Positions 834 to 19,096 of a DNA stretch of 35,517 nucleotides are shown one piece after another. The notes under the pieces are model-generated. The model was given only the letters and a program-made list of their open reading frames with translations, made no database searches and was not told the DNA's origin. Every line of letters begins with the position of its first letter. Within the stretch, counting starts at the first letter, position 1. Position numbers and translations under genes: made by a program. The stretch comes from a virus (taxonomy: Duplodnaviria; Caudoviricetes): positions 1 through 35,517 of IMG/VR virus record IMGVR_UViG_3300037465_000689, one strand, 5' to 3'.

Positions 834-997
834 CATTCCCCGGTAGCTCACCCGCCACTAGATCGTCGGCGGGTGCCCGCCGAAGCTTTAGTGGCGGGCA
901 GCTTCCGCCACAGAACGTGGCGGACCCGTTTCACGCGCGGTGGAATGGGCAGGGCTGCGCTACACTTTGACAATCGAATTCATTCCCCGGTAGCTCA
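834..997 (+). repeat. 17-bp direct repeat (CATTCCCCGGTAGCTCA, 834-850 and 981-997) duplicating the tRNA 5' end and enclosing palindromic units
   Basis: Exact match seen. A TACAAT -10-like box at 823-828 precedes the first copy. Confidence 0.85.
851..949. repeat. Cluster of REP-like palindromes
   Basis: 851-873 and 876-898 are inverted copies of a 23-bp unit (20/23 identical), each itself a CCCGCC..GGCGGG hairpin. Further hairpins at 904-924 and 925-949. Confidence 0.75.
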
Positions 998-2696
998 GCT
1001 GGTAGAGCGGCTCACTGTTAATGAGCATGTCCGTGGTTCGAGTCCACGCCGGGGAGCCATTTTTAATTTGTCCGAACCTCCCGCCGCCTCCATGCGGCGG
1101 TCCCGATCCACCGGAACCACCGGGGCCGCCGCTTGGAGGGTCGCGGAGGTCGATGCGGTCCCGCTCGGTGGTGAAGGTCGGGTTGTACGAGAGATTGGCA
1201 TAGCGGTCGTCGATCTTCACGGAGACGACCAGCGACTGCACGAACGCCTTCCGGGCCAGCGCGGACTCGTCCGTGAAGAGTGCCTCGAAGAACTCCACCC
1301 ACTCCTTGATCGTCTGCTTCGACAGCTTGATCGGTTTCGCAGCCAGTTGAGCCTTCAGTTCGTCGCGCTCCAGTTCCTTCTGGACCTTCAACTCCGCCAG
1401 CTCTCTGAGCCGCGGCGCGACGTCCCGTTTGGTCAGTCCCGTCTCTTCATCTTCGATGGCCTCGAACAACCGGCGCTGCTTGCGTTCGATCCCCAGGATC
1501 TCCCGCTCGAGAGTCGGCAGCTGCTTGCCACGCTGAGCCTGCGCTTCTTTCAGCGCTTCGTTGTGCCCCCGCACCATATCGGTGAGCGCCTGCTCGCTCG
1601 TAAGCCGCGTCTTGAGCTTCTCCAGGAACACCCGCTCCACATCATCGGCGTTGAGAGTCCGCTGCGTGCAGGCTTCGGTGCCTTTGCTGACCTGCGTGTT
1701 GCATCGGTAATAGCGATACCGGCCGCCCGAGCCGTGTGCAGCGTAGCCGACGAAGCTCGCGCCGCAGAGCACGCACTCCATCAAGCCGGAGAACAGGTAG
1801 TCGCTGGCGACAGCGCGGGGATGTTTCGCTGTGCGCTGCCGTCCTTCCAGAAGCTCCTGCACCCGGTTCCAGGTCTTCCGATCCACGATGGCCTCGTGGG
1901 CGTCCTTGACCGTGATCGGCTCCAGCTTCCAATCGATGGGTCGCTGGCGCTTGTTCAGCCGCTTGCCGAAGGTCGCATCCCCGCAGTACTTCTCATTCCG
2001 TAGGATGCCCAGCACGAGGTTCCGGCTGAAGGCATACCCGCCGCGGTACTTCACGCCCTCGGTGTTGAGGCGATGACGGATGGCGTTGGCCCCGGTGCCT
2101 TTGACATACATCGAGAAGATCCGGCGTACGATCTTGGCTTCGGATTCCTCGATGGCGAGCTTGCGCTTCGGTCCCTTCTCGGTCTGCACGGACACGAACG
2201 TGTAGCCGAAGGGTGCGAAGCCGCCGTTCCACCACCCGTGCCGGGCGTTTTCCGCCATCCCCTTGAGGCTCTCCCGCGACAGATTGAGGCTATAGAACTC
2301 GTCCATCCCTTCCAGCATGGCCTCGAGCAGGACCTCGGTCGGATCGCCGGAGCCCAGGATGGGCTGGGTCGCGGAGACGACGCGCACACCTTTCCGGCGG
2401 AGGATGTGCTTGTACTTCACCGAGTCGTAGCGGTTGCGGGCGAACCGGTCGAGCTTGTGGACCAAAATCATCTGAAACGGCAAATGCTTGCCGGTGGCCT
2501 CGGCAATCATGGTTTGAAAGGCATCCCGCTGGTCGGAGGTGCCCGACCGCGCTTCGTCGACGTAGATCTTATGGACCTTCCAACCTTGCTTCTCGGCGAA
2601 CTCCGTACAGCCGCGGCACTGCGCCTCAATGGACATCGAGTCGCGCTGCTGCTCGGAGGAATAGCGACAGTAGATGGCGCAGGTAGTGGTGCCCAT
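960..2696 (-). CDS. Large serine recombinase (integrase)
   Basis: AIYCRYSS catalytic motif, DEARSGT, KLDRFAR, recombinase domain, Zn ribbon (CVLC...RC...C), coiled coil. Start taken at MGTTT (2696) because 2777 overlaps the upstream gene. The C-terminus runs through the tRNA. Confidence 0.95.
   Translation of the reverse strand: MGTTTCAIYCRYSSEQQRDSMSIEAQCRGCTEFAEKQGWKVHKIYVDEARSGTSDQRDAFQTMIAEATGKHLPFQMILVHKLDRFARNRYDSVKYKHILRRKGVRVVSATQPILGSGDPTEVLLEAMLEGMDEFYSLNLSRESLKGMAENARHGWWNGGFAPFGYTFVSVQTEKGPKRKLAIEESEAKIVRRIFSMYVKGTGANAIRHRLNTEGVKYRGGYAFSRNLVLGILRNEKYCGDATFGKRLNKRQRPIDWKLEPITVKDAHEAIVDRKTWNRVQELLEGRQRTAKHPRAVASDYLFSGLMECVLCGASFVGYAAHGSGGRYRYYRCNTQVSKGTEACTQRTLNADDVERVFLEKLKTRLTSEQALTDMVRGHNEALKEAQAQRGKQLPTLEREILGIERKQRRLFEAIEDEETGLTKRDVAPRLRELAELKVQKELERDELKAQLAAKPIKLSKQTIKEWVEFFEALFTDESALARKAFVQSLVVSVKIDDRYANLSYNPTFTTERDRIDLRDPPSGGPGGSGGSGPPHGGGGRFGQIKNGSPAWTRTTDMLINSEPLYQLSYRGMNSIVKV
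984..1059 (+). tRNA. tRNA-Asn (GTT)
   Basis: 76 nt. Acceptor TCCCCGG/CCGGGGA, D arm GCTC..GAGC, anticodon arm GCTCA-CT GTT AA-TGAGC (GTT 1017-1019), T arm CGTGG-TTCGAGT-CCACG, encoded CCA. Confidence 0.97.
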
Positions 2697-2703
2697 GATG
2701 GTC

Positions 2704-2925
2704 TTACTGAGCTTGCGATTCTCGCTGTTGGATATAGTCTTCAAAGTACTGAACGGACTGCCGCAATTCGGCGTCATTCGGTCTGGATTGTAGAGCAGCC
2801 CTCAATCTCTCCAGATCCAGTTTCAGTTGTGGAAGAGCGGTCGTTCTCTGAAACGTATGCCCGGTGATGGACGTCAGCAACGCTGCCTTCCGGTCAAGGA
2901 AATCCTCAAAGTCCTTTTGGTTCAT
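2704..2925 (-). CDS. Hypothetical helical protein (73 aa) in the repressor-integrase operon
   Basis: ATGA overlap with the upstream gene, GGAG RBS, ends 7 nt before the integrase ATG. Confidence 0.65.
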   Translation of the reverse strand: MNQKDFEDFLDRKAALLTSITGHTFQRTTALPQLKLDLERLRAALQSRPNDAELRQSVQYFEDYIQQRESQAQ

Positions 2926-3173
2926 TGTGCCCCGCCTACTCGGTATCGATAGTCATGTGCCTGAACGTCTGTGGCGAACTGTTGAAAGATGCGGCGGTAT
3001 GCGTCAACGGTCTTGCAGAGGCGGAGGCTTTGCGAGGTGATCGGAGTCCAGGTCTGCTCGGTGATCGCGAGCTTGCCCGTCAGATCCAGGGCGGCGGTCA
3101 AGTGGAGTCTGGAGTTCGGATGCGCCTCCATCTGAGCTCGTTGCAGGTTGGGTGGGTCGTCATGTCGCGGCAA
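2922..3173 (-). CDS. Hypothetical protein (83 aa)
   Basis: Overlaps both neighbours in the leftward operon; GAGGA upstream. Confidence 0.55.
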   Translation of the reverse strand: MPRHDDPPNLQRAQMEAHPNSRLHLTAALDLTGKLAITEQTWTPITSQSLRLCKTVDAYRRIFQQFATDVQAHDYRYRVGGAQ

Positions 3174-3552
3174 GGGCTTCCTCAGGCTCCTTCAACGCTT
3201 GATCGATCAGTTTCCGATGCGGGGAGTTCACCTTGGTGAACTCGAAGCCGTGATACCAGAGCTGCTCGCCCTCGACCTTGCGCGACTTCTGCCAGACCAG
3301 CTTGGCATCCGCCTCGACGACCTGCCGGTCGTTCGGCGGACGGAACAGGATCAGGCAGATCACGCTCGCCCCGGCGGGCAGCTGCTTCGTCGAGCAGCAG
3401 CAAAAACCGTTCGGGCCGATGTTGACCCCCACCTCGTCATCCCATTTGCGCTTCAGGGAGATCGTATTGATCTGGACGATATCGGTGCCGAAGGCGAGCG
3501 ACTTCCGAAACCCTTTCCGCCGCTCCAATCCGGCATAGCGCTTCGCGGTCAT
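3160..3552 (-). CDS. PilZ-domain protein (putative c-di-GMP receptor)
   Basis: ERRKGFR (RxxxR), VNIGPNGF ([D/N]h[S/G]xxG), AKLVW and HGFEF strands, and a C-terminal helix typical of PilZ. ATGA-coupled to the repressor stop. Confidence 0.8.
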   Translation of the reverse strand: MTAKRYAGLERRKGFRKSLAFGTDIVQINTISLKRKWDDEVGVNIGPNGFCCCSTKQLPAGASVICLILFRPPNDRQVVEADAKLVWQKSRKVEGEQLWYHGFEFTKVNSPHRKLIDQALKEPEEALAAT

Positions 3553-4373
3553 TTGAACAGTTCCTCCACTTTTTTCAGCAATTCCTGCACCTCGAACGGC
3601 TTCTCGAAGTACCCTTCGATGTTGAGGTCCATGGCGTGCAGATCCACGATATCCTGGGCGTGCGCCGTCACGACGATGACCTTGGAGTGGGTGTTGATCT
3701 TGCGCAGCTTCCGCAGGAACTCCAACCCACCCATCAAGGGCATGTGGAGATCCAGGAGGATGAGGTCCGGCTTTTCTTGGCGCTTGATCAGCAACCCGAG
3801 GGCGGATTTGCCGTTGAAGGCGTAGTCGACTTGGAATCCCCGGTCGCGCAGCGCACCGGCCACCAGGTGGCAGATCTTGATCTCATCCTCCACGATGAAA
3901 ACCGTCTTGCCCTTCTCAACGGGAGCTTTGTTGCCGACCTTGGCCTTGCGCTCGAGCAGCTTCTGGATGAGAGGCGCCACGACACTCCGGACGGTCTCCC
4001 AATCCTCTTCGCTGAGCTTGTTCAGATCGTCCGGCGTGAAGCCCAGTTTTCTGAGGATCGCCCAGAGGGCTTCTTCGCCGCCGGCCGCTGGCCGCTCGAG
4101 GGGCATCTCGACACCCATGTCCCGGAACTCCTGGAGCACCCGCGCCGAGCGCTTCTGCAGCTTGGCTTCGAGGACCTTGTGCAGCAGCTCGCCCTGCTTC
4201 AGCTTGAGCGCTCGCTCGAGCTTCATAGCCATCTGGGGTGAAGGGATCGTCTTGCCGGTTTCGAGGCGGTTGATGTAGGAGGTGGTGCAGCCGACCATCT
4301 GAGCGACGTTTTCTTGCTTCAGGTCGGCGCGGGCCTTGCGGAGGTACTGGCCGATTTCGGGAGCGATGACCAT
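3549..4373 (-). CDS. CI-position repressor: XRE HTH fused to a C-terminal response-regulator receiver domain
   Basis: N-terminal LRKARADLKQENVAQMVGCTTSYINRLETGK HTH. C-terminal receiver with E162/D163, D208 (LLDLHMP), T236, Y255, K258 (KPF). Divergent from a cro-like gene. Confidence 0.9.
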   Translation of the reverse strand: MVIAPEIGQYLRKARADLKQENVAQMVGCTTSYINRLETGKTIPSPQMAMKLERALKLKQGELLHKVLEAKLQKRSARVLQEFRDMGVEMPLERPAAGGEEALWAILRKLGFTPDDLNKLSEEDWETVRSVVAPLIQKLLERKAKVGNKAPVEKGKTVFIVEDEIKICHLVAGALRDRGFQVDYAFNGKSALGLLIKRQEKPDLILLDLHMPLMGGLEFLRKLRKINTHSKVIVVTAHAQDIVDLHAMDLNIEGYFEKPFEVQELLKKVEELFK

Positions 4374-4382
4374 CGCAGGTTC

Positions 4383-4411
4383 ATGGTAGCGTGGCCGTTA
4401 AAATTTCTCAA
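4383..4411 (-). promoter_or_regulatory. Leftward (PRM-like) sigma70-type promoter
   Basis: Minus strand TTGAGA-N17-TACCAT, 9 nt from the repressor ATG with no SD, implying a near-leaderless mRNA. Confidence 0.6.
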
Positions 4412-4421
4412 AGGATATTTA

Positions 4422-4451
4422 TTGACACTTTATGGTTGATTCAAGTAAACT
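4422..4451 (+). promoter_or_regulatory. Rightward (PR-like) promoter
   Basis: TTGACA-N18-TAAACT, 10 nt before the cro ATG (4462). The spacer holds ATGGTTGATT, which is repeated at 4698-4707. Confidence 0.7.
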
Positions 4452-4461
4452 CCCAGGTGAG

Positions 4462-4686
4462 ATGGACACCCCGACCGTCATCCAGAAGGACCGGTTCAAC
4501 GGGCAGCGGATCTACCAGCGGCGGCTGGAGCTGGGCTTGTCGCTGGAGCAGGTGGCCATGCTGATCCGCCGCAACGTGGCTTCGATCCACGGATGGGAAA
4601 CTGGCAAGCACCGGCCGACCCCGCGCTCGCTCTACCTGCTGAGCCATGCGCTGCGGGTGAAGCCCCAATATTTTTTTGCCCCATGA
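4462..4686 (+). CDS. Cro-like XRE HTH regulator
   Basis: RRLELGLSLEQVAMLI...SIHGWETGKHRP...LSHALRVKPQYFF; divergent from the repressor. Confidence 0.88.
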   Translation: MDTPTVIQKDRFNGQRIYQRRLELGLSLEQVAMLIRRNVASIHGWETGKHRPTPRSLYLLSHALRVKPQYFFAP

Positions 4687-4690
4687 ATAT

Positions 4691-4707
4691 ATCAATCATG
4701 GTTGATT
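4691..4707. promoter_or_regulatory. Candidate operator palindrome ATCAAtcatggTTGAT
   Basis: Imperfect palindrome in an AT-rich patch; shares 10 bp with the PR spacer. Confidence 0.45.
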
Positions 4708-4711
4708 AAAT

Positions 4712-4924
4712 ATGAACGTACCGAGGCGGGTCGGCGACAAACACACTACCTCGCTCGTTCTGGGCCCACCCGAACAGAGTCCGGGGGAATTGGCCGCTCT
4801 GTTCGTCGCGGATCGACCCGGAGCCATGGAACTGCAGATTCTATCGGAGCCGGAGATCGCCGAAGTCGTCCGGAAGTTGCGGAGGCGCCTGCTGAGGCGG
4901 CAGCGCGTCCAGAGCCGAGCATGA
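4712..4924 (+). CDS. Hypothetical early protein
   Basis: Follows cro; ATGA-coupled to the next ORF. Confidence 0.5.
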   Translation: MNVPRRVGDKHTTSLVLGPPEQSPGELAALFVADRPGAMELQILSEPEIAEVVRKLRRRLLRRQRVQSRA

Positions 4925-5079
4925 CCGAGACCTGGTTACTTCATAGGCCATCGACGATATGGCGATGGTGGTGCCGGCGGTTCCATCGGCGATGGCATGC
5001 CTCGTTCGGCAGCTTGGGACTACCGCATCGTGCGCGATGCAGCCGGTGTTCGCTTATCTGGCCGTACGGGGTGGATTGA
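4921..5079 (+). CDS. Small Cys/His-rich hypothetical protein
   Basis: MTETWLLH...WCRRFH...RCSRC; starts at the ATGA overlap. Confidence 0.4.
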   Translation: MTETWLLHRPSTIWRWWCRRFHRRWHASFGSLGLPHRARCSRCSLIWPYGVD

Positions 5080-5134
5080 CATGGAGTTCGGGATCCATGG
5101 AGCGCATCGGCTGCCAGTTTCGGGTTGAGCAGCC

Positions 5135-5485
5135 ATGGCATGGCGGAAGAGCTGGTGTAACCAGAATCTCGATCCCGACGGCACGAAGCGCAAGCTCGCA
5201 CCGGAGCACCGCAGCGTGTGGGACGACCTGCTCGACCTCGCGGAGGTGTCGCCCGTGACCGGCCGGGTGTGCGCATTCCCCGGAATCGGCTACACGACCG
5301 AGCAGCTTGCGGCCATCCTCAACACGCCGGCGAAAATCATCCAGGAGGCCCTGGAACGGTTCGAGAGCAAAGAGTTCGACATGGTCGACGTCGACAAGCG
5401 CGGCGTCATCACGATCAAGAACTGGCCGAAATACCAGAGCGAGTACCAGCGGCAGAAAGGGTACAGGCAGAAGTTACACAAGTAG
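5135..5485 (+). CDS. Replication initiator (replisome-organiser-like N-terminal winged-helix domain)
   Basis: W..LL.LA...G....YT.EQLA..L...ITIKNWPKYQ pattern typical of phage replisome organisers; position after cro. Confidence 0.7.
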   Translation: MAWRKSWCNQNLDPDGTKRKLAPEHRSVWDDLLDLAEVSPVTGRVCAFPGIGYTTEQLAAILNTPAKIIQEALERFESKEFDMVDVDKRGVITIKNWPKYQSEYQRQKGYRQKLHK

Positions 5486-5518
5486 GTTACGGGTCGAAGT
5501 GACGACGGAGGGTTACAC
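5460..5518 (+). repeat. 13-bp-period iteron-like array (candidate replication origin)
   Basis: GGTAC 5460, GTTAC 5473, GTTAC 5486, GTGAC 5499, GTTAC 5512, exactly 13 bp apart. A-rich tract follows at ~5560-5582. Confidence 0.6.
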
Positions 5519-5581
5519 GGCTGAATTCATCGGAAGGTGCGGGTCCAGATTTCAGAATGCAGAGTACAGAGAAAGAAAAAG

Positions 5582-5932
5582 ATGACGCTTCGCGTCTTCA
5601 TGCAACACCTCACCCGAGCCCTCAAAACCAAGACCGGCTGCCCGAAACCGGAAGTCGTTCGAGCGGCGAGGAAAGCCTATGGGACTATCGTCGGATACGC
5701 CAAGCAGCATCCGGACCGCCTGGAATGGCTGAGCCTGCAGGTCGATTACCTACCGGGCGGCCGGGATCCCATCTGGTACGCGATCTACCTGAAAGAGCTC
5801 ATCGCCGATGAACAGTGTGCAGAGAAAGAACGAGCCATCAGAGGACGATCATGGAACAGCGACCGGAAGCGCCAGCCGATCGACAGCTTAGTGGCGTCGG
5901 TGGTCGCTTCTATGACGAGCCGCCGCCGTTGA
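5582..5932 (+). CDS. Hypothetical protein in the replication region
   Basis: ORF MTLRVFMQHL..., same frame as the initiator. Confidence 0.55.
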   Translation: MTLRVFMQHLTRALKTKTGCPKPEVVRAARKAYGTIVGYAKQHPDRLEWLSLQVDYLPGGRDPIWYAIYLKELIADEQCAEKERAIRGRSWNSDRKRQPIDSLVASVVASMTSRRR

Positions 5933-6212
5933 ACGTCAGCCTGTTCGTGTGGCTGCTCAGTTTGTGTTCACAAGAGCTCTACCAGGCCGAGCTGCTGGGC
6001 AAAGGGAAGAACTGATGCATGAGAAGAAAGCCTGCGGACATGAACGAGGTTACCGGTGCGCTGCCACCCGCTGTCAGGCAAGCGACGACGGCAGGCGGAC
6101 CTGGTCGATCTGATGAACCAACCGATGGGTGTCCGTCTCGCCCGGGTCGAACAGGATGATGCGGAGACTCTGGAGGACGAGGGACAGGATTCCGAGTAGT
6201 CGATCAAGCCTC

Positions 6213-6365
6213 ATGCCCGCATGGTTCATCGTGATCATGGCGTTGCTCAACGCCGGCGCCGGCGCCAGCTTCTTGCGACAGGGGAATCGGCCGTGGGCGT
6301 TGATCTACTTCGGCGCCTGCCTCATCCAGGTCGGTAGTCTATGGGCGATCCGGCGCGGTTCTTGA
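6213..6365 (+). CDS. Small two-TM membrane protein
   Basis: MPAWFIVIMALLNAGAG...WALIYFGACLIQVGSLW hydrophobic segments. Confidence 0.55.
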   Translation: MPAWFIVIMALLNAGAGASFLRQGNRPWALIYFGACLIQVGSLWAIRRGS

Positions 6366-7309
6366 CCCATGGCAGTCTCTTTACAGGAATCGGCGGCTTC
6401 GACCTCGGGTTCGAATGGGCTGGATTCGCCACCGCGTGGCAAGTCGAAATTTCCTCGTACTGCACCAGAGTCCTCGAGCGGCGATTCCCAGGCGTGCCGC
6501 GCTACACCGATATCACCGAATGCGGGGCGCACAACTTGGTGCCAGTTGACGTTCTTACAGGAGGATTTCCATGTCAACCATTCTCGCTCGCCGGAAAGCG
6601 ACGCGGCGCCGCGGATGACCGCTTTCTCTGGCCGGAAATGTATCGCGTTGTTGCGGCGCTGCGGCCGCCTTGGGTTGTGGCTGAGAATGTGCCTGGCATC
6701 GTCGGAGTTTGCCTGGACGACGTCATGGCTGACCTGGAAGCCGAAGGTTACGAAGCGGGGGCGCTTGTACTTCCAGCTTGCGCCTTCGGCGCATGGCATC
6801 GGCGAGATCGAGTCTTCGTTGTTGCCCACACCGCTTGCGAGCCAAGGCGGGCAGGGAGATCCGAACGATCCCAAGCGCGGCAGGAAGTTGGCGGTGGCGG
6901 CGCAGTGGTGGCCGACGCCGACTCGGTCGGACGGCGTGGGAGGGCCGGCCCACTCAGGTCGAAACGGCGGCAGGAATCTGCGGACGGCCGTGGCGTTGTT
7001 CCCGACGCCCACCGCCACGAATACGAAGAGCATACACAGCCGGACCGGCGGCAGGCCGCCACGGAGCTATCTCAAGACGCCGACGTCCGCGCCGTTCAGC
7101 CACGGCGGATCCGGCGGAGAGCTGCACAAACAGGTGGCCAAGAGTGGTGGGCCGTTGAACCCCGCGTGGGTCGAGTGGCTTATGGGGTTCCCCATCGGCT
7201 GGACCGCCTTGCCGCGCTCGGTAACGCGGTCGTCCCGCACGTCGCCTACTGGATCGCTTGCAGGATCCGTGAGGCCGTCGAACGGCAAGGCTGCGATAAC
7301 GCGGTGTAA
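6341..7309 (+). CDS. C5 cytosine DNA methyltransferase, alpha polypeptide
   Basis: Motif I LFTGIGG, IV GGFPCQ, VI ENV, VIII HRRDRVF, X LGNAV; no motif IX in this frame. Confidence 0.93.
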   Translation: MGDPARFLTHGSLFTGIGGFDLGFEWAGFATAWQVEISSYCTRVLERRFPGVPRYTDITECGAHNLVPVDVLTGGFPCQPFSLAGKRRGAADDRFLWPEMYRVVAALRPPWVVAENVPGIVGVCLDDVMADLEAEGYEAGALVLPACAFGAWHRRDRVFVVAHTACEPRRAGRSERSQARQEVGGGGAVVADADSVGRRGRAGPLRSKRRQESADGRGVVPDAHRHEYEEHTQPDRRQAATELSQDADVRAVQPRRIRRRAAQTGGQEWWAVEPRVGRVAYGVPHRLDRLAALGNAVVPHVAYWIACRIREAVERQGCDNAV

Positions 7310-7313
7310 ATGA
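6369..7313 (+). CDS. Overlapping +1-frame ORF: putative beta polypeptide of the methyltransferase (true start uncertain)
   Basis: Repeated LLPTP/WWPTP/LFPTP/LKTP units and LNPAWVEWLMGFPIGWT (motif IX-like). Its stop overlaps the rusA ATG. Confidence 0.7.
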   Translation: MAVSLQESAASTSGSNGLDSPPRGKSKFPRTAPESSSGDSQACRATPISPNAGRTTWCQLTFLQEDFHVNHSRSPESDAAPRMTAFSGRKCIALLRRCGRLGLWLRMCLASSEFAWTTSWLTWKPKVTKRGRLYFQLAPSAHGIGEIESSLLPTPLASQGGQGDPNDPKRGRKLAVAAQWWPTPTRSDGVGGPAHSGRNGGRNLRTAVALFPTPTATNTKSIHSRTGGRPPRSYLKTPTSAPFSHGGSGGELHKQVAKSGGPLNPAWVEWLMGFPIGWTALPRSVTRSSRTSPTGSLAGSVRPSNGKAAITRCK

Positions 7314-7672
7314 GCGTGCGGTTCATCGTGGAGGGAGAGCCCATCGGCCAGCAACGCGCCCGCATGGGACGAAGCGGAAAGCGGGGCGAGAGGACGCACT
7401 GGTACACACCGGACAAGACCCTCGAATACAAGCAGCGGATCGCACAGGCCTTCTTGCGGGCGAACGGGTTCCGATGGCTGGATCCACCGGCTGTCACGGT
7501 TCACGTCCGGTGTTTCTTCGGCGCTAAGGACCACCCCGATCCGGACAACGTCCAGAAACTGGTCCTCGACGCGTTAACGAAGCTGGCCTATCCCAACGAC
7601 CGCCACATCGCGTCGAGCAACACTCACGAGTATGACAGGCGGCGTCCGCGCATCGAGGTGGAGGTGGCCTGA
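7310..7672 (+). CDS. rusA: RusA-family Holliday junction resolvase
   Basis: GEP..QQRAR, YTP..T..Y, PDPDNVQKLVLDAL...Y.ND, PRIEVEV. Confidence 0.85.
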   Translation: MSVRFIVEGEPIGQQRARMGRSGKRGERTHWYTPDKTLEYKQRIAQAFLRANGFRWLDPPAVTVHVRCFFGAKDHPDPDNVQKLVLDALTKLAYPNDRHIASSNTHEYDRRRPRIEVEVA

Positions 7673-7710
7673 ATGGATCCGGATACCCGGCAAACCGAAG
7701 AGGACGGGCG

Positions 7711-7914
7711 ATGAAGTGCAGCTATAGACAATGCAGGCGAGAATTCATCTGCGGCGCATTCCGTCCCCAGCGCTACTGCTCCACCCGATGCAAGACTCTA
7801 GCGAAGAACGCCCGTCGTCGATGGCGCTATCGTCGTGACGAGGCGTTGAGAACCCGCGCACAGGAGCGGATGCGCGCGTACCGCCGATGGTGTTCCGCGA
7901 CCGTCCCCACGTAA
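7711..7914 (+). CDS. Small basic Zn-finger protein
   Basis: CxxxxC...F...QRYCSxxC followed by an Arg-rich helix; GAGGA RBS. Confidence 0.6.
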   Translation: MKCSYRQCRREFICGAFRPQRYCSTRCKTLAKNARRRWRYRRDEALRTRAQERMRAYRRWCSATVPT

Positions 7915-7915
7915 G

Positions 7916-7967
7916 CGTTCGTCCCCCGTTCGTCCTCTATCGTTCGTCCCCCAATCCGTTCTAACGT
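7916..7967 (+). promoter_or_regulatory. Three direct repeats CGTTCGTCC(C/T)C plus a -10-like TAACGT upstream of the late operon
   Basis: Copies at 7916, 7927 and 7941; partial CGTTC at 7957. Confidence 0.55.
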
Positions 7968-7981
7968 CTTGCTGGCAAGCC

Positions 7982-9031
7982 ATGTGGAGCCGATTCAACG
8001 CCCTGATTCCATACTTTGGCGGCAAACGATCACTCTGTCCGGTGATCTTCAAGGCCATCAGCCAGCACATCCCGCAGCAGGAGTGGCTGCGGACCACCTT
8101 CGTCGATGGCTTCTTCGGCGGCGGGGCGACCGCGCTCTTCGCCAAGGCGCAGGGGATGCGGGTGCTGACCAACGACCTCGCCAACCGCGCCAAGATCGCC
8201 GCCGATGTCTTCATCGCCAATGACCGGATCACGATCGCCGACGAGGACCTGCATCGGCTCTTTGTCAACGGCGCGGAGCATGCCCACTTCGTGGAGGAGC
8301 ATTTCGTGCCCTCGATGTTCATGCGCAAGCACGCGCAGTTCATCGACAACGCGCTCGCTCAGATCGACCGCATCCAGCACATGACCAAGCGGCAGCTGAT
8401 GAAGTTCGCGCTGATCCAATACATGCTCCGCATCACGCCCTACAGCCAGATCCACTCGGTCGACTACTTCCAGAAGATCGAAGGCGAGGAGTTCCACCGG
8501 CTGGGGATGTCGCGGGTGAAGAAAATCCCGTACACCTGCATGCACCCGATCCGCATCCTCACCGAGCTGCAAGCCAAGATCAACCGGGCGATCTTCCCGA
8601 ACGGCCACCGCAACGAAGCGCACCAGCGGGACGTCTTTGAGTTTCTGGCAAGTGTCGAAGGGGATATCTGCTACCTGGATCCGCCCTACGCCGGCGCTCA
8701 GCCCTACGAAATCTTCTACAGCGTGCTCGACCAGATCCTCGACCGAGAGTTCCGCCGGCTGCGCTGGTCGCCGCGGGACCATGAGGCGAACCCGTTCAAC
8801 GGCCCCGAAGCGAAGGCCATGCTCGTCCGATTGCTGGAGGCGACCAAGAAGTTCCGGGTCGTGGTCCTCAGCTACGGCAGCCAGCGCTACACGTTCGAGG
8901 AGTTCGAGGAGACGGTCAAACAGGTCGAGCCGCAGGCGGAGGTCTTCAAGGTGAATCTGCGCTATCCCTTCACCCGCAAGACGGACCAGGAAGCGGTGCG
9001 GAAAGAACTCATGGCGGTCATCGCCCACTGA
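7982..9031 (+). CDS. N6-adenine DNA methyltransferase (Dam/D12-like)
   Basis: PYFGGK, FVDGFFGGG (SAM binding), YLDPPY (catalytic). Confidence 0.9.
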   Translation: MWSRFNALIPYFGGKRSLCPVIFKAISQHIPQQEWLRTTFVDGFFGGGATALFAKAQGMRVLTNDLANRAKIAADVFIANDRITIADEDLHRLFVNGAEHAHFVEEHFVPSMFMRKHAQFIDNALAQIDRIQHMTKRQLMKFALIQYMLRITPYSQIHSVDYFQKIEGEEFHRLGMSRVKKIPYTCMHPIRILTELQAKINRAIFPNGHRNEAHQRDVFEFLASVEGDICYLDPPYAGAQPYEIFYSVLDQILDREFRRLRWSPRDHEANPFNGPEAKAMLVRLLEATKKFRVVVLSYGSQRYTFEEFEETVKQVEPQAEVFKVNLRYPFTRKTDQEAVRKELMAVIAH

Positions 9032-9042
9032 AGGAGCGGCGG

Positions 9043-9207
9043 ATGGAGCGAACGAACGATCCGAACCTGCAGGAGCTGTGCGTCGTGCCCGGCTGCGGCG
9101 CGCTGACGACCCACCGGGCCGTCATCGGCGACACGCTGCTGGTGCCGGCCTGCGCGCATCATTCAGACCACGAGATCGAGGCGGCCGCCGCGGAGCGCCA
9201 GGGATGA
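9043..9207 (+). CDS. Small Cys/His protein (54 aa)
   Basis: AAGGAG RBS; MERTND...CVVPGC...CAHH; ATGA-coupled to the ParB-like gene. Confidence 0.55.
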   Translation: MERTNDPNLQELCVVPGCGALTTHRAVIGDTLLVPACAHHSDHEIEAAAAERQG

Positions 9208-9878
9208 GCCAGGTCTTCCATACGGTCGAGCTGATCGACGTCGAGCGCATCCGCCCGAACGACTACAACCCCAACGCCATGCCGGCCACAACCTACGAGG
9301 CGCTGGTGGCCAGCATCAAGGCGCGGGGCTTCAAGAGCGCGATCTACGTCCGTCCGCCGGATGACAGCGGTGTGTACACCATCGTGGATGGCGAGCACCG
9401 CTGGCGGGCGGCGAAAGAAAGCGGCCTGCTCCACGTGCCCTGCGTCGTCCTTCCGGCCAACCAGGACGAGGCGATGATGGACACCATCGCCATGAACCAG
9501 CTGCGCGGCAGCCTGGTGCCGGTCAAGGTGGCGCTGGTCATCGCGGAGCTGTCCAAGCGCATTCCTGTCGAAGCCTTGGAGAAGGAACTGGGCTTCGAAG
9601 AGCACGAGTTGGAAGACCAGCTGGAGCTGCTCAAACTCCCGGATGACATCGAGAAGACCATCGAGCTGCAGGCGGAGATGGAGGAGCGCGAGGCGCTGCA
9701 GGTGGTCACCTTCGTCATGCGCAAGCCGCAGGCCGAGCTGGTGGAGCGCGTCATCACGGAGGTCGAGAAGGAAGTGGACGGGCCGAACCGGCGCGGCCAT
9801 GCGCTGGAAGTGATCGTGAAGGGGTATCTCCGGGCCGCTGGAAAGGGAGCGCCGGAGGTACCAGTTCCGCAACCATGA
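9204..9878 (+). CDS. ParB/Srx N-terminal domain protein
   Basis: IRPNDYNPN, SI...GF..AI.V, IVDGEHRWRA, N.LRG. Confidence 0.85.
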   Translation: MSQVFHTVELIDVERIRPNDYNPNAMPATTYEALVASIKARGFKSAIYVRPPDDSGVYTIVDGEHRWRAAKESGLLHVPCVVLPANQDEAMMDTIAMNQLRGSLVPVKVALVIAELSKRIPVEALEKELGFEEHELEDQLELLKLPDDIEKTIELQAEMEEREALQVVTFVMRKPQAELVERVITEVEKEVDGPNRRGHALEVIVKGYLRAAGKGAPEVPVPQP

Positions 9879-10357
9879 ACCGCCAGCAGCAAATCAACGC
9901 AAGTAAAAAGGCCAGCCAGGTTTACGGCTTGCGCGTGAGGGGCTGGAGGGTCGCCGAGATTGCAACGTCCCTGGGGATTCCGGAGCGCACCGTGTACTAC
10001 CTGCTGCAGGAGGGCGACCGGATCACCGGCGGGCGCATCCGCGCCCTCACGCGGGACGGCGCCCTGCGGCAACTCTTCCTGGCGCATGAGGAGCGCGAAC
10101 GGAAGCTCTGGGACCTGATCGTGACCAGCCGGGTGGACATCGTGAAAGCCCACTGCTTGAAGCAGCTCGTCGAAGAGGAGCGGCGCTTCGAGGAACTGCT
10201 CGTGCGGATGAAGGTGCTGCCGAAAGCCGCCGATCTCAAGACCGAGCACGACATCACCTACACCGAGCGAAAGGACCTGCGCCTCCGCGTGGAGGTGCGC
10301 TACCCCGATGACCAGCTCGTTGGCCGCGCCGCTGATCTCTTCGGACGAGTACGTTGA
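9875..10357 (+). CDS. Terminase small subunit (putative)
   Basis: N-terminal HTH (GWRVAEIATSLGIPERTV) followed by helices, directly upstream of terL. Confidence 0.6.
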   Translation: MNRQQQINASKKASQVYGLRVRGWRVAEIATSLGIPERTVYYLLQEGDRITGGRIRALTRDGALRQLFLAHEERERKLWDLIVTSRVDIVKAHCLKQLVEEERRFEELLVRMKVLPKAADLKTEHDITYTERKDLRLRVEVRYPDDQLVGRAADLFGRVR

Positions 10358-11777
10358 GCTCGTGCGGTCGGTCGCGCCGCGCCGGCTGGACGTGTTCGTC
10401 AACCACGTCTTCCGCGACAGCCTGGAGCTGATCGACGGGCGGTTCGTGCCGGGCCGGCACATCGACCAGTGGTGCGCGCGGCTGCAGGAGCGGAATAAGA
10501 CCGGGACGATCTCCGCCCGGAAGCACAGCAAGAGCACGACGTTCTACGGCTTCCTCGCCTGGCGGCTGTTCCGGATCTTGTTCGGCCAGGAGGTGCCGGC
10601 GTTCGAGGAGCTGCTCTACATGAGCTACAGCGCGGATCTGTCGCAGTACCACCTGAAGAAGGTCAAGCGCTACATCGAGGCGAACCCGTGGTTCAAGCCG
10701 CTCGTGAGCCTGACGGACGCGGAGAGCATTCTGCACTACCGCACCCCGGAGGTGGCCGGCACGAGCGAGCGCCGGGAGGTGCTGATCGAGCCGGCCGGGG
10801 TCATGACGTTCAAGCGTGGCCGCCATCCGCACGGGGTGCTGTGCGACGACATCCTCCGCGATCCAGAGGTGCGGCTGGATCTCACCCAGATCGAGAAGAT
10901 CACGCGCATCTTCCTGGAGGAGATCGTCAGCATGCCCCAGGAGGGCGGCTTCCTGCACATCGCCGGCACGCCGCAGGACAAGGAAGACCTCTTCACCGCG
11001 CTGAAGCAGATGGAGAGCTTCGACGTGGCGGAGTACCCGGCGGTGATCGACTTCGAGCGGCGGGAGGTGCTCTGGCCCGAGATGTTCCCCTTCGAGCGGC
11101 TCATTGAGATTCGGGATAAGGAGGTCGGCAAGAAAGCTTTTCTGAAGGAGTACCAGTGCCGGCCGGTGCGCGAGGTGAGCGGCTACTTCGAGGACGCGGA
11201 GATCGACGCGGTCATTGATCCGCAGCTGAACCCACTGTCCATCGGTGCGCAGACGCCGGCTACCCGCTACGTCGGGGGCATGGACCTCGGCAAGAAGAGC
11301 CACCCGTCGCACTTCGTGCTCTTCGAGGATACCGGGACCGAGCTTATCCAGCGCGTCTCGCGGTGGTTTGACCACACGGACTACACCGAGCAGGTGGCCT
11401 TCGTGAACGCGCTGGATCGGCTCTACGACCTGGTCGGCCTGTGCTACGACGACACCCGGGCCGAACTGGAGAGCTTCAAGGAGCGCCGCGAGCTGCCGGC
11501 CTGCGCGGTCGGAGTGCCGCTGACCGCCAAGGCGAAGTTCGAGTCAGCAGCACTCTTCGGCACCCGGGTGCGGCAGCGCACGATCCGGCTGCTCGATGAT
11601 CCGCGCCAGCGTCGGCTGCTGCTCTCCGTGGATGACAATCTCAACGCGCCGGAGACGGCCGAGGGCCACGGCGACAGCTTCTTCAGCATCATGCTCGCCT
11701 GCAAGGCGGCCCAGCAGAGGGTCCGGCCCACGCTGGGGATCGTCACCGTGGGTGGCGGCAATGGAGACGAGGACTGA
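10308..11777 (+). CDS. terL: Terminase large subunit
   Basis: Walker A-like ARKHSKST, RG.H, Walker B LCDD, AGTP, RNase H-like GMDLG...HGD. Confidence 0.88.
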   Translation: MTSSLAAPLISSDEYVELVRSVAPRRLDVFVNHVFRDSLELIDGRFVPGRHIDQWCARLQERNKTGTISARKHSKSTTFYGFLAWRLFRILFGQEVPAFEELLYMSYSADLSQYHLKKVKRYIEANPWFKPLVSLTDAESILHYRTPEVAGTSERREVLIEPAGVMTFKRGRHPHGVLCDDILRDPEVRLDLTQIEKITRIFLEEIVSMPQEGGFLHIAGTPQDKEDLFTALKQMESFDVAEYPAVIDFERREVLWPEMFPFERLIEIRDKEVGKKAFLKEYQCRPVREVSGYFEDAEIDAVIDPQLNPLSIGAQTPATRYVGGMDLGKKSHPSHFVLFEDTGTELIQRVSRWFDHTDYTEQVAFVNALDRLYDLVGLCYDDTRAELESFKERRELPACAVGVPLTAKAKFESAALFGTRVRQRTIRLLDDPRQRRLLLSVDDNLNAPETAEGHGDSFFSIMLACKAAQQRVRPTLGIVTVGGGNGDED

Positions 11778-13891
11778 TGGGCCTGCTCTCGGTGGTTCGC
11801 CACAAGCTCATCGATGCCCTCCGTAGCGCCCCTGAGCATTCAGGGCGCGCGCCCTCCGCCCTGAAGCAGTCCCGGACGTTCGAGGTCATCACTCAGCCCT
11901 GGATGGCGCCGCAGGGTGTTCCCCGTCCGGAAACCATCGCCACCTTTGAGGACTTCGGGCGAGTGTTCAAACGCGAGGTGTGGGTCTTCGCCTGCGCCAA
12001 GCGCATCGCGGAGGCGGCCGCGGATGTGCCGATCAAGGTCTGCCGCCTCCGGCGGGACGGTACCGAGGAGCCGCTGAAGCGGCACCCGCTGCTGGAGCTG
12101 CTGCAGGGCATCAACCCCCACATGGGCCGCGCCCTGTTCCTGGAAACCCTCTTCGCCGGAGTCGAGTTGATGGGCAACGCCTACATCGAGAAGGTCCGCA
12201 AGACGCCCGCCGGCCCGCCGGTCGAGCTGTATCCCCTGCGGCCGGACCGGATGAAGATCGTGCCCGATGCCAAAGCGTACATCGCGGGATTCCTGTACGA
12301 CGTCAACGGCCGCAAGATCGCCTTCGAGTCGCGGGACGTCATCCACCTCAAGACCTACAACCCCTGCGACGACTACTACGGCCTCAGCACCCTGGAGGCC
12401 GCCGCGCTCTCGGTCGAGAACGATCAGTACAGCATCGCCTACAACCGGAACTTCTTCCGCAACAACGCGCTGCCCGCCGGCATCTTCGTGACCTCCGATG
12501 CCGTGAAGCAGGAGGACGTGGAGCGGCTCAAGGCCGAGTTCGAGAAGCTCTTCAAGGGGGTGAAGAACGCCCACCGGGTGGGCTGGCTCTCCGGCACCTG
12601 GCAATGGCTCGACATGGGCCTGAAGCAGCGCGACGCCCAGTTCATCGACAGCCGCAAGCTCAGCCGCGAGGAGATCCTCGCGGCCTTCGGGGTGCCGCCG
12701 GTGCTGGTGGGGATCTTCGAGTTCGCCAACTACGCCAACAGCCGGGAGCAGATCCAGATCTTCTGGAAAACCACGATGCTGCCCCGGCTGCAGCGGATCG
12801 AGGATCAGCTCAACGAGCAGCTCGCGCCGGACTTCGGCGAGGACATCCGGATCCGCTTCGACCTCAGCGAGATCGAGGCGCTGCGGGAAGACCAGGACGC
12901 CCGCACGAGCCGGGTGCGGGGGCTGGTGCAGGACGGCATCGTCACCCGCAACGAGGCGCGGGAGCAGCTGGGCCTGGAGCGGCTGGAGGCACCTGAGATG
13001 GACCTAATCTTCCTGCCGCTCACCATGATCCCGATCGGGGTGGGTTCCTCGATTCCCGAGCAGCCGGCGGAGGACCAGAAGGCGCGCCGCCCCTTCCAGG
13101 AAGAGATCAAGACCGCGAAGTGGCGGGAAATCATGGCGGACGTGGCGCTCTTCGAGGCGCCGATGACCGCGGCCCTGCGCAGCTTTTTCACCCGGCAGCG
13201 CGAAGAAGTCATGCGCCGCTTCCATGACGCCATCATGGCGGACACGCTGCAGCTCTCCGGCAACGGCTCCCTGGTCGTCAAGCAGCGCGTGACGCTTGAG
13301 CAGATCACCTTCGACGTCCTGGAGGCGGAGCGAGAGCTGGAGCGGATCGGCCGGCGGCAGCTGGCGGCCAGTATCGCGCGGCGCGGCAGCCGCGCGCTCG
13401 CCAGCCTCGGGGTCGACTTCGACTTCAACGTCAAGGATCCGCGGGTCCTGGAGTTCCTGGAGCGGCAGGTGTTCAAGTTCAAGCGCGGCATCAACGAGAC
13501 GACCCGCGAGGCGATCCGCGAGGCGCTGCTGGCCGGCGAGCGGCTCGGCGAGGGGGTCACGCAGATCGCCGACCGCATCAACGCGCTCTTCGAGGAGGCG
13601 AATCAGGTGCGGGCCCTGCGCATCGCCAGGACGGAGACGCTGGGCGCGGTCAACTTCGGCCAGCTGGAGGGCATGGCGCAGTCCGGACTCGTCAGCCACA
13701 AGCAGTGGCTCAGCGCGCGGGACGGCCACGTGCGGGCGTCGCATCAGCAGTTGGATGAAGACACGCAACACACACCCATTCCGCTGATGCAGCCCTTCAG
13801 CAACGGGCTGATGTTCCCCGGCGACCAAACCGGCCCAGTGGAAGAGGTCGTCAACTGCCGGTGCGTGCTGCTGGAAGTCATCGAGCGATGA
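11777..13891 (+). CDS. HK97-type portal fused to a Mu gpF/SPP1 gp7-like minor head domain
   Basis: WVFAC..RIA, GNAY, L.PDRM, YYGLS, FFRNNA.P, I..FGVPP. C-terminal RIARTE, KQWLSA.D..VR..H, FPGD...NCRC. Confidence 0.92.
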   Translation: MGLLSVVRHKLIDALRSAPEHSGRAPSALKQSRTFEVITQPWMAPQGVPRPETIATFEDFGRVFKREVWVFACAKRIAEAAADVPIKVCRLRRDGTEEPLKRHPLLELLQGINPHMGRALFLETLFAGVELMGNAYIEKVRKTPAGPPVELYPLRPDRMKIVPDAKAYIAGFLYDVNGRKIAFESRDVIHLKTYNPCDDYYGLSTLEAAALSVENDQYSIAYNRNFFRNNALPAGIFVTSDAVKQEDVERLKAEFEKLFKGVKNAHRVGWLSGTWQWLDMGLKQRDAQFIDSRKLSREEILAAFGVPPVLVGIFEFANYANSREQIQIFWKTTMLPRLQRIEDQLNEQLAPDFGEDIRIRFDLSEIEALREDQDARTSRVRGLVQDGIVTRNEAREQLGLERLEAPEMDLIFLPLTMIPIGVGSSIPEQPAEDQKARRPFQEEIKTAKWREIMADVALFEAPMTAALRSFFTRQREEVMRRFHDAIMADTLQLSGNGSLVVKQRVTLEQITFDVLEAERELERIGRRQLAASIARRGSRALASLGVDFDFNVKDPRVLEFLERQVFKFKRGINETTREAIREALLAGERLGEGVTQIADRINALFEEANQVRALRIARTETLGAVNFGQLEGMAQSGLVSHKQWLSARDGHVRASHQQLDEDTQHTPIPLMQPFSNGLMFPGDQTGPVEEVVNCRCVLLEVIER

Positions 13892-13908
13892 ACGCGAAGG
13901 AGGCGGAT

Positions 13909-14913
13909 ATGCAGTATCGGACGATCGACGAGGGCGGGCTGTGGCGCAGCTATGAGGCCGGCCGCGTGATCACCAGAAGCGGCGCAAGCTCCCCATTGCT
14001 GCGCATGCCGATGGCGGTGGAGGTGAAGCAGCTCGGAGACAAGACCTCGCGCGTGCTGCGGTTCATCGCCTCCACGGAGGATGAAGACCGGGACGGCGAC
14101 ATCATCCGCGTGGCCGGGTGGGATCTGACCAACTTCCTCACCAACCCCGCGCATCTCTGGGCCCACAACATGCGCGAGGACCTGCCGCCCATCGGCAAGA
14201 CGATCCGCCTCGAGATCCAGGACACCCGAATGATCAACGATGTGGACTTCTTCATGGCCGAGGAGTTCGAGCTGGCCCGGCTCGCCTTCAAGGCGCACCT
14301 GGCCGGGGTCTGCGCGGAATCCGTGGGGTTCCGGCCGCTGGAGGCCTCGGAGCGGCACGGCAGCGACGGCCGGCTGATGGGCTTCGAGTTCAAGCGGCAG
14401 GAGCTGCTGGAAATCTCCTCGGTGCCGGTGCCCTGCAACCCGAACGCGCTGATGATGGCGACGCAGAAGGGGCTCTTGACCTCCGAGGAAGCGACCAAGA
14501 TCGAGAACGTCTGGACGCCGGAGCGCGCGCGACCCATCGAAATTTATCTGCCGGAGGCGAAGACGGCTGCGGCCGAGCCTCCTCCGCCCGCCGGGGCACC
14601 GGCCTCGCCAAAGCAGGCGGAGGATCCGAGGGATGAACAGGTTCGAGCCGGGCAGCTGGAAGCCGCCGCAGCGTTCGCCCAGGCGCTCGATGAGGCGGGC
14701 CGGAAGATGATGCAGGCGCACTGCTTGCGCCTGGCGGAGGTCTACGGGCTGAAGATCACGATCGAGACAGGCGAGGCGCGCGAGGGCGAGGCGAAACAGG
14801 TCGAGGCGTTGGCAGAGACGGTCCAGGCGCTCTCCCAGCGGTGGGATGAGCGGGAGCAAACGATCGGTCGCACCGTGAGCCAAGCGGTGCAGGACGCGGT
14901 CAAGGCATCGTAG
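13909..14913 (+). CDS. HK97-family prohead protease with C-terminal extension
   Basis: ASTEDEDRDGD, LWAHN, PIGK, SVGF, LLEISSVPVPCNPNA. AGGAGG RBS (alternative start 13888). Confidence 0.9.
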   Translation: MQYRTIDEGGLWRSYEAGRVITRSGASSPLLRMPMAVEVKQLGDKTSRVLRFIASTEDEDRDGDIIRVAGWDLTNFLTNPAHLWAHNMREDLPPIGKTIRLEIQDTRMINDVDFFMAEEFELARLAFKAHLAGVCAESVGFRPLEASERHGSDGRLMGFEFKRQELLEISSVPVPCNPNALMMATQKGLLTSEEATKIENVWTPERARPIEIYLPEAKTAAAEPPPPAGAPASPKQAEDPRDEQVRAGQLEAAAAFAQALDEAGRKMMQAHCLRLAEVYGLKITIETGEAREGEAKQVEALAETVQALSQRWDEREQTIGRTVSQAVQDAVKAS

Positions 14914-14929
14914 CCCAGAGGAGGAGCGA

Positions 14930-16363
14930 GTGATGGTTGCGACGTTGGAGGAACTCACGAAGCTGGTCCACGACCTGAAGGACAAGGTCGAGCAAGGGGT
15001 CAACCCCGACGCCTTGGCCGAGACGGTGCGCGGCGAGATCACGAAGGCGCTCTCGGCGGTCCGGACGCCGGAGCGGCGGGGGCAGTTCGACGTGGGGACG
15101 CACCGGCTGGCGCGCGGCGGGGACGTCAAGTTCCTGGTCCACGGCATCACGCCGAAGTACGTGCATCCGGCGCCCTGGGCGCCGCCGGTGGCCACGAACC
15201 CGCTCTTCACCCCGGATGTCGAGGAGCTGACCAAGCTCAACGACGCGGCGGTGATCACGGCCATGATCATGGCCAAGGCGGACGGCATCGAGGAGCTCGA
15301 CACCGAGGAAAAGGTCGGCCGCTACATCCAGCGGCGCATCGAGCACGGGAGCAAGGCGTTTCTCCAGTGGCGCGAGCAGTTCAGCAGCTTGAGCAAGGCG
15401 CTGGACACCGCCACCACGGCGGAGGGCGCGGAGTTCGTGCCCACCGGCTTCTCGCGGGATCTGATCGACCGGGTCCGGATCGCGGCCAACGTGGGCAATC
15501 TCTTCCCCGAGGTCAACATGCCGCAGGATCCGTTCAAGCTGCCCGCCCGGGCGTTCGCGCGGCAGAAGGCGCGCAAGCTCAGCGAGTCCACGGCCGACAG
15601 CGCGACGAAGATCACCGCGGTCACCCCCGGCACCCGGCAGGTGACGCTGGACGCCAAGAAGCTCGGCGTGCGCGTGCTGGAGTCGCTCGAGTTGGAGGAG
15701 GACTCCATCATCGCGATGGCGCCCTTCATCCGGGACGAGATCATCGAGGGGCTGGCCTACGGGCTGGAGGACGCGTACCTCAACGGCGATGACTCCGGCA
15801 CCCACATGGACAACGACACCAACGGGGGCGCGGCGGACCTCGCGGCCAAGACCTGGATCGGGCTGCGCAAGCACGCCCAGGCCAACAGCGTGACGCAGGA
15901 TCTCTCCACGTTCAGCACGGCGAACCTGCGCGCGCTGCGCAAGAAGCTGGGCAAGTACGGCGCCGATCCGCGCAACCTGGCGTGGATCGTCTCGATCAAG
16001 GGCCTGATCGCCATGATGGGCCTGGCCGAGGTCATCACGCTCGATAAGTTCGGGCCGCTGGCCACCGTCATCACCGGGCAGCTGGCGATGTTCGACGGCA
16101 TCCCGGTCATCGTCTCGGAGGAGATGCGGGATGACGTGGCGGCCACCGGGGTCAACACGGGTGCTGGGCCGAACACGCTCTCGAACCTCGTGCTGGCGAA
16201 CCGGCGGGCCTGGATCCGCGGGATCCGGCGGGCGCCGACGGTCAAGACCAAGGAGGACATCGAGACGGACCAGCTCATCGTCGTGGTGACGTGGCGCGGC
16301 GATTTCCAGCGCACGCTCGGCACGGCGGAGACGCACATCGGTCAAGGGATCAACTTCTCGTAA
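14930..16363 (+). CDS. Major capsid protein (HK97 fold, N-terminal delta domain)
   Basis: Coiled N-terminus, KAL...G.EFVP, TL.AKKL, D.YLNGD, GIPVIVS. Confidence 0.92.
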   Translation: MMVATLEELTKLVHDLKDKVEQGVNPDALAETVRGEITKALSAVRTPERRGQFDVGTHRLARGGDVKFLVHGITPKYVHPAPWAPPVATNPLFTPDVEELTKLNDAAVITAMIMAKADGIEELDTEEKVGRYIQRRIEHGSKAFLQWREQFSSLSKALDTATTAEGAEFVPTGFSRDLIDRVRIAANVGNLFPEVNMPQDPFKLPARAFARQKARKLSESTADSATKITAVTPGTRQVTLDAKKLGVRVLESLELEEDSIIAMAPFIRDEIIEGLAYGLEDAYLNGDDSGTHMDNDTNGGAADLAAKTWIGLRKHAQANSVTQDLSTFSTANLRALRKKLGKYGADPRNLAWIVSIKGLIAMMGLAEVITLDKFGPLATVITGQLAMFDGIPVIVSEEMRDDVAATGVNTGAGPNTLSNLVLANRRAWIRGIRRAPTVKTKEDIETDQLIVVVTWRGDFQRTLGTAETHIGQGINFS

Positions 16364-16373
16364 CGAGCAGACG

Positions 16374-16412: not shown

Positions 16413-16432
16413 AACTCAAGGAGGTCGTTGGC

Positions 16433-17112: not shown

Positions 17113-17125
17113 AGCAAATACGGCG

Positions 17126-19090: not shown

Positions 19091-19096
19091 CGAACC

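Follow-up and report, generated by a model that had tools for sequence, protein, structure and literature searches.

An XRE-receiver protein as candidate CI-equivalent repressor in the switch region of an apparent Omnitrophota prophage

The window, a stretch of 35,517 nucleotides analysed at its full length, carries a probable CI/Cro-type switch built from a host regulator, and this module is real, conserved and selected. The protein in the repressor position, a fusion of an XRE helix-turn-helix (HTH) to a receiver domain (XRE-REC), would work like CI yet stands outside the self-cleaving CI family. The reading favoured here, with a probability of about 0.5, is that this 274-residue protein is the CI-equivalent of the prophage and that its repression would be tuned by host phosphotransfer, possibly with an input from c-di-GMP. 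Judging from the sequence, the prophage would likely wake by reading host signalling and not by cutting its own repressor. If the reading is true, a repressor that is itself the phospho-acceptor would connect lysogeny with host signalling by the most direct route possible.

The prophage and its repressor protein

The window apparently holds a whole tailed prophage of about 33 kb at a tRNA-Asn gene, likely spanning about 1.05–34.28 kb (Table 1). The cover by related sequence in two other runs stops near 34274, beside a GGGGAG that also ends the tRNA. No excision junction occurred in the contigs compared, whose two stretches could not have contained one. The early and late genes encode a replisome organiser, two DNA methyltransferases, RusA, ParB-N, terminase, portal, protease, capsid, tail tube, tape measure and Dit; no lysis gene family was recognised in the window. 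The labels of proteins with 93–96% identity suggest that the host is likely Ca. Omnitrophota. Recombination at the tRNA would alter the C-terminus of the integrase, whose frame runs antisense through the tRNA-Asn (window 960–1060), and in the related locus L001/L046 the sequence beyond the common tRNA end differs. A C5 methyltransferase gene and a second long frame overlap at 6341–7309 and 6369–7313, and this second frame stays open in L046 (82%) and L048 (38%). A RadC-like JAB gene (32388–32915) was observed among small ORFs at the right end of the prophage, and an IS110 transposase gene (34456–35517) just beyond the candidate boundary.

The sequence-only reading had described the repressor candidate as an XRE HTH, a helical linker and a receiver with a full catalytic set, and this architecture was borne out by Pfam, the sequence and AlphaFold2. 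Pfam matched HTH_3 at residues 11–58 (47 bits, cut-off 23) and Response_reg at residues 158–270 (91 bits, cut-off 30), with no match to Peptidase_S24 in the protein. The receiver residues present are the acidic pair E162 and D163, the phospho-Asp D208, T236 and K258. The AlphaFold2 model contained an N-terminal XRE helical bundle and a five-strand receiver; residues 62–145 between them were all-helical, of low confidence and poorly modelled (pTM 0.46), and the solved structures that best matched the model were receivers, with an rmsd of about 2 Å. A contig from a possible source run corresponds to window 983–6500 with 0 differences; the fusion is therefore no error confined to the one record. 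The arrangement described earlier was also found, with the repressor gene divergent from cro and the integrase downstream, as given by Pfam-matched neighbours. The sequence-only reading had seen neither an S24 peptidase domain nor a histidine kinase in the window, and the ORFs scanned, which were the long ORFs and likely genes (Pfam sets of 30, 43 and 4 and a PHROGs set of 49, out of 249 ORFs in total), gave no match to the histidine-kinase, S24 or GGDEF/EAL families.

The receiver, claimed to be intact, is also conserved. All 40 of the 40 full-length relatives have D163, D208 and K258, with either Thr or Ser at position 236, and the dN/dS of the receiver is 0.05–0.19 in all six pairs of the four prophage copies, these being rough values with several dS above 1. 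Identity among six subfamily representatives averages 31% in the HTH and 52% in the receiver, which points to a DNA specificity that changes, and a sensor that is kept, across the XRE-REC subfamilies.

These residues bear on an alternative in which XRE-REC is the repressor, the receiver is only a constitutive oligomerisation domain, and induction, which may still follow DNA damage, is brought about by an antirepressor, either Cro in a MOR-like role or the product of a small unassigned ORF. As described in the accessible parts of two papers, the CI of phage TP901-1 has no peptidase domain, does not cleave itself, has a helical middle domain and is countered by MOR; its operators lie at the lytic promoter and in the distal part of mor, the small divergent gene, which resembles the window site after cro (PMC7250872, PMC8516035). 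For the small divergent protein as antirepressor the likeness is one of layout only. The TP901-1 CI of those texts has no receiver and is controlled by the MOR antirepressor. A constitutive domain would also agree with the lack of a kinase match on the element among the ORFs scanned. However, a mere scaffold would be expected to lose its phosphorylation residues, and none of these has been lost from any prophage copy, although the copies span a divide with 43% receiver identity; no antirepressor family was matched among the window ORFs scanned either, and this alternative is considered unlikely. The favoured reading, with a phosphorylated repressor, does not include the earlier argument that induction is SOS-independent for want of an S24 domain. 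This does not follow, because TP901-1 CI has no peptidase and is under the control of MOR, and because VP882, in the accessible part of its description, retains an SOS route alongside the VqmA-Qtip signal route (PMC10426928).

The switch region and related elements

Table 1. Positions of the prophage, repressor and switch features in the window.
Feature	Position	Strand	Detail
Large serine integrase	960-2696	-	Frame antisense through tRNA; Pfam, PHROGs
tRNA-Asn(GTT), likely integration site	984-1059	+	GGGGAG at 1051-1056
Single-domain PilZ protein	3160-3552	-	130 aa; RKGFR and NIGPNG motifs
XRE-HTH, helical linker and receiver protein, candidate CI-equivalent repressor	3549-4373	-	274 aa ORF
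D208 codon of the XRE-REC repressor	3750-3752		
PRM-like consensus promoter	4383-4411	-	-10 ends 9 nt before repressor ATG
PR-like sigma-70 consensus promoter	4422-4451	+	TTGACA-18-TAAACT; conserved in L001, L047, L048
Candidate operator half-site in PR spacer	4432-4440	not assigned	ATGGTTGAT
Cro-like XRE protein, first gene of rightward early operon	4462-4686	+	74 aa from ATG 4462; Pfam HTH_3
Weak match to a leftward promoter beyond cro, in the position of an establishment promoter	4695-4667	-	Overlaps palindrome 4691-4706
Candidate full operator just past cro	4691-4706	not assigned	16-bp near-palindrome
Phage early and late genes	5135-23974	+	Pfam, PHROGs
Candidate right attachment core	34276-34281	+	GGGGAG; one of 11 window copies

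The longest cro ORF begins at 4432; the ATG at 4462 is the likely start because ATG 4432 falls inside the predicted promoter spacer. The repressor message is predicted to be leaderless or near-leaderless, and the lambda repressor promoter is similarly near-leaderless. The operator overlapping the lytic promoter is a candidate only, a conserved half-site in the PR spacer whose motif was chosen post hoc, all operator motifs having been picked after the alignments were viewed. This half-site occurs twice in the window, in the PR spacer and in the palindrome after cro, a count reached by 2 of 100 shuffles, and both places are conserved in L001, L047 and L048. The PR-spacer site agrees with one half of the downstream palindrome and not the other, with mismatches at 5 of 16 positions, and 38 window 16-mers are as self-complementary as that palindrome. 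Cro could also bind the window motif.

The claim that XRE-REC occupies the CI slot was strengthened by relatives with XRE-S24 repressors in the equivalent position. The related integrase was found at 76 IMG/VR loci, of which the one close locus, L167 (67–69% identity), was alone examined; this provirus has the same tRNA-Asn end, and an XRE-Peptidase_S24 gene faces a small HTH gene upstream of the integrase. A strong integrase match was obtained in 13 of 401 genomes; 12 regions were retrieved and 11 of them mapped. L260 (integrase 40%) has an XRE protein with Peptidase_S24 in the repressor slot, upstream of the integrase and facing a small HTH gene, L263–L266 have XRE proteins without a recognised C-terminal domain, and the remaining regions showed no comparable switch or were cut short. 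The slot thus appears to take interchangeable repressors, XRE-REC among them. A HaeII-type restriction-modification pair lies between CI and integrase in L167 (6574–8735).

When the XRE-REC/cro layout was searched for elsewhere it was found, together with PilZ, in four other loci with identities of 37–96%: L001 (= L046; 96%), L048 and L047 (70%) and L002 (37%). L047 is a 1.9-kb contig that is phage-like by synteny only, and the L002 contig also carries a terminase and a methyltransferase 59% and 61% identical to those of the window. The IMG/VR records scanned with the protein, two alignments and the promoter motif, a set from which neighbours of the window may be missing, gave no full-length relative. 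XRE-REC matched 45 of 50,697 GenBank phage records, none across 80% of the query, and the 25 matches listed covered the receiver part only. Matches in BFVD were receiver-only or HTH-only, bar one response regulator of 16% identity at 13.7 Å rmsd; the best 60 of 260 PDB sequences were all receiver-only, with no repressor-receiver fusion, and four phages with a related terminase gave no XRE-REC or S24 match, an uninformative result at 18–74% completeness. Downstream of the L002 switch is a large RHS-repeat gene with SpvB and TcdB-midN domains (L002:12958–19929, L115:7204–12999), and a second long ORF with the same start was seen further along the contig. A MerR-family gene with small partners (L114:10149–11137), also present in L272, lies in the early region of the L002 prophage.

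In overall layout the window is like the lambdoid CI/Cro switches (lambda, phi13 and the XRE-S24 loci L167 and L260), with a divergent XRE repressor and cro, a candidate operator-like site in the lytic promoter and an integrase downstream. It differs from them in that the repressor is without Peptidase_S24, has a receiver as its C-terminus and is coupled to a PilZ gene.

Chromosomal relatives in Omnitrophota

XRE-REC appears to be a host-type Omnitrophota regulator that is also used by phages, and not a phage invention. Among loci with a readable context, 18 of 23 show no phage genes in the stretch read and five are prophage-type, in a tally that omits L055, L131 and L151 (partial or without HTH) as well as proteins whose DNA context was not available. 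Two draws of about 400 genomes each around genome G001, at phylum and class level, yielded 13 Omnitrophota chromosomes with XRE-REC and PilZ and no phage gene in the 6–20 kb read; a Pfam-confirmed comEC is near the pair in six of them. In nine further loci a stand-alone receiver precedes the PilZ gene. The closer relatives (42–54%) include L049 (= L050) and L051 (= L052), which face a fabF-fabG-acp-fabZ cluster, L054, a 2-kb fragment of the same type, and L053, which faces a broken PAS kinase gene; L149 lies inside a signalling island.

The palindrome TATCAC-N5-GTGATA (at most one mismatch) was located within 160 nt upstream of XRE-REC in 12 of the 13 chromosomal loci, with 0 occurrences in the other 191,643 nt of these loci. 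In 11 of the 13 loci it lies across a divergent consensus promoter, mostly within the spacer, and the regulator's own -10 ends 4–10 nt before the ATG in 12 loci. The exact palindrome is unique, at the XRE-REC locus, in three of five genomes searched; of the remaining two, one carries a site with a single mismatch, and in the other the PilZ locus lacks XRE-REC. The divergent gene, of about 80 residues and often ahead of comEA/comEC, encodes no HTH, so XRE-REC is the only local candidate binder; this gene could be assigned to no family, and the idea that it is a Cro remnant was rejected. The chromosomal XRE-REC would likely repress this one divergent promoter, giving a first predicted regulator-operator pair for an uncultured phylum. 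Its Gln-Ser recognition helix and the TATCAC half-site are similar to those of lambda CI and the lambda operator. The phage switches show the geometry of the chromosomal loci with different motifs, and the family has the look of a locally acting repressor exchanged between host and phage. The conserved switch, with a 17-bp palindrome in the promoter of the ~80-residue gene and a leaderless regulator, was observed at L110–L113 and L152–L160. No operator was found at the fab-type and L053 loci.

Three HTH types pair with three different motifs. The L002-type motif TACTG-N7-CAGTA occurs four times in genome G002, in two pairs with spacings of 64 and 62 nt, each pair ahead of a cro-like gene and the two genes unlike each other, and the backwards control of the motif gave one site. 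One XRE-REC was found in G002, and it is favoured as the binder because the same site precedes unlike Cro proteins. At L272:2553–5600 (G002:C13) two L002-type sites precede a cro-like XRE gene, which is accompanied by two tyrosine recombinases. The sites have no repressor gene next to them, and phage late genes lie about 16–36 kb further along the contig (L273); the XRE-REC encoded on contig C21 may act on this locus in trans.

In a receiver tree of 66 rows and 119 columns, with many forks open, the prophage copies formed two sister subclades mixed with non-phage copies (joint support 98/91), and a single clade for the five prophage copies was rejected (AU test, p 1.4e-5). Homologues that are chromosomal regulators without phage context had been held to speak against a phage switch; such regulators account for the 18 non-phage loci, but the layout also recurs in prophages. 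Because of those loci and the AU test, the active site may have been conserved more for its role in the host than for the switch. Exchange both ways after a presumed origin in the host would be the simplest reading. The receiver-PilZ pair most likely entered the phage family from an Omnitrophota chromosomal module, and most likely moved between phage and chromosome more than once.

The fall of the phage copies among non-phage ones, with 18 of 23 relatives chromosomal, could also indicate that the receiver-PilZ pair is cargo taken from the host, with which the phage reprograms signalling of the host as a lysogen, and that immunity comes from another protein such as the 74-residue XRE protein. 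Against cargo, the ORFs scanned hold no other repressor candidate on the lysogenic strand, and the window-type motif has its exact match in G001 only at the switch. The window-type HTH is 17–31% identical to the chromosomal types and so should not read their operators, and the gene is present in one of 37 genomes of the order of G001, where that copy sits in a prophage. Such a cargo role is distinctly improbable.

The PilZ partner, host signalling and a proposed mechanism

The proposed coupling of PilZ to the repressor proved to be conserved. The PilZ gene overlaps the repressor stop by 4 nt in the window, the two genes abut or overlap in 19 of 19 loci tabulated, and the receiver and PilZ trees yield identical three groups, L047 having been excluded from the PilZ tree. 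In L047 (1464–1856) the PilZ frame runs into FtsK-like sequence at the contig end, likely marking a chimeric contig. The window protein scored 22.3 bits, just below the Pfam cut-off of 22.5, with orthologues above it; its model had a pLDDT of 83, and the top 10 Foldseek ranks listed were all PilZ-containing entries (best E 1.7e-4). The RxxxR motif is present as RKGFR and the (D/N)xSxxG position reads NIGPNG, with Gly for Ser, a Gly found in phage-side PilZ proteins where the chromosomal ones have Ser/Thr.

The pairing could alternatively mean that c-di-GMP is the main signal, PilZ serving either as an antirepressor gated by its ligand or as an adaptor for the kinase, with the receiver mainly its docking site. 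Receiver and PilZ are neighbours across the class, including the nine stand-alone pairs, and their trees agree. In L151 (8620–11311) a kinase, an HTH-less linker-receiver, PilZ and an HD_5 protein follow one another directly behind a type IV pilus cluster, and an HD_5 or REC-GGDEF gene adjoins the REC+PilZ pair in L164 and L155. The L151 row is possibly an intact ancestral circuit and a candidate for the kinase family. HapZ and MapZ are likewise stand-alone PilZ proteins tied to a phosphosignalling protein, HapZ working with the kinase SagS; in the accessible part of the source they are chromosomal Pseudomonas adaptors, whereas the window PilZ is known from a phage gene and its partner binding is putative (PMC12564702). 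A main role for c-di-GMP is nevertheless quite unlikely, given that the phage PilZ has NIG instead of DxS, that several chromosomal PilZ proteins are without both c-di-GMP motifs, and that four non-phage loci have no adjacent PilZ gene, as is so for the fab-type and L053 regulators.

The favoured reading, in which XRE-REC is a phosphorylated repressor, may be set out in four steps. XRE-REC would probably repress PR; as position and sequence suggest, it would bind the PR-spacer site and the post-cro palindrome and shut the cro-replication operon, the repressor itself being made from its near-leaderless message. Given repression, we lean towards control through D208 by a host kinase. The conservation of D208 suggests that it would be phosphorylated in vivo, and the phosphodonor would be host-encoded because no kinase was found on the prophage among the ORFs scanned. 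The third step is the weakest: phosphorylation may favour an operator-holding oligomer, so that the signal would keep lysogeny and its loss would induce. The phosphorylated form is the active one for most response regulators, an analogy that gives a slight preference to it as the repressing form. Finally, the PilZ protein might add a c-di-GMP input via the receiver or its kinase, as gene coupling hints, an input that we place somewhat short of even odds. Also tentative, and rather doubtful, is the general proposal that Omnitrophota prophages swapped the RecA-triggered peptidase of CI for a host receiver-PilZ module, making the master repressor a response regulator that integrates an Asp-phosphorelay and c-di-GMP without a phage-made sensor, kinase or peptide.

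Arbitrium is a signal-reading phage switch, and a prophage kinase-phosphatase module was reportedly described by Guo et al. in 2024. Host CtrA and Spo0A sites were found on phage DNA, according to the accessible part of the source (PMC9437464). These systems and VP882 are like the favoured reading in coupling phage fate to a host or population signal; as far as the accessible texts go, their sensor is a protein of its own, or a regulator of the host acts on promoters of the phage, whereas in the window the phospho-acceptor is fused to the candidate repressor. Orphan response regulators with a C-terminal receiver and the chromosomal Omnitrophota XRE-REC+PilZ pairs resemble the window module in a canonical receiver, no adjacent kinase, a PilZ partner and a candidate operator in a divergent promoter. 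The chromosomal copies differ in facing the ~80-residue non-HTH gene (often before comEA/comEC) or fabF-fabG-acp-fabZ, and in their HTH and operator. A literature search of titles and the starts of abstracts, covering few subscription journals and no supplements, gave no phage repressor with a receiver domain, and the words 'two-component', 'response regulator', 'phosphoryl', 'receiver' and 'c-di-GMP' do not occur in a 2026 mini-review of SOS-independent induction (PMC13760530).

Histidine kinases are encoded elsewhere in G001 and G002. Comparison of nine kinase-specificity positions pointed to no partner: the non-phage XRE-REC types agreed with the window protein at 2–5 of the 9, and one outgroup agreed at 5. 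The PAS-kinase gene that faces XRE-REC in L053 (8143–9142) is frameshifted and lacks the His of the H-box, and it was rejected as an intact partner. A repeated signalling island in L117, L118 and L149 contains a 7TM-GAF histidine kinase, several receivers and an XRE-cupin protein, to which L149 adds an AfsA-type hotdog protein and an acyl carrier protein; it is possibly a small-molecule signalling cassette near prophage genes.
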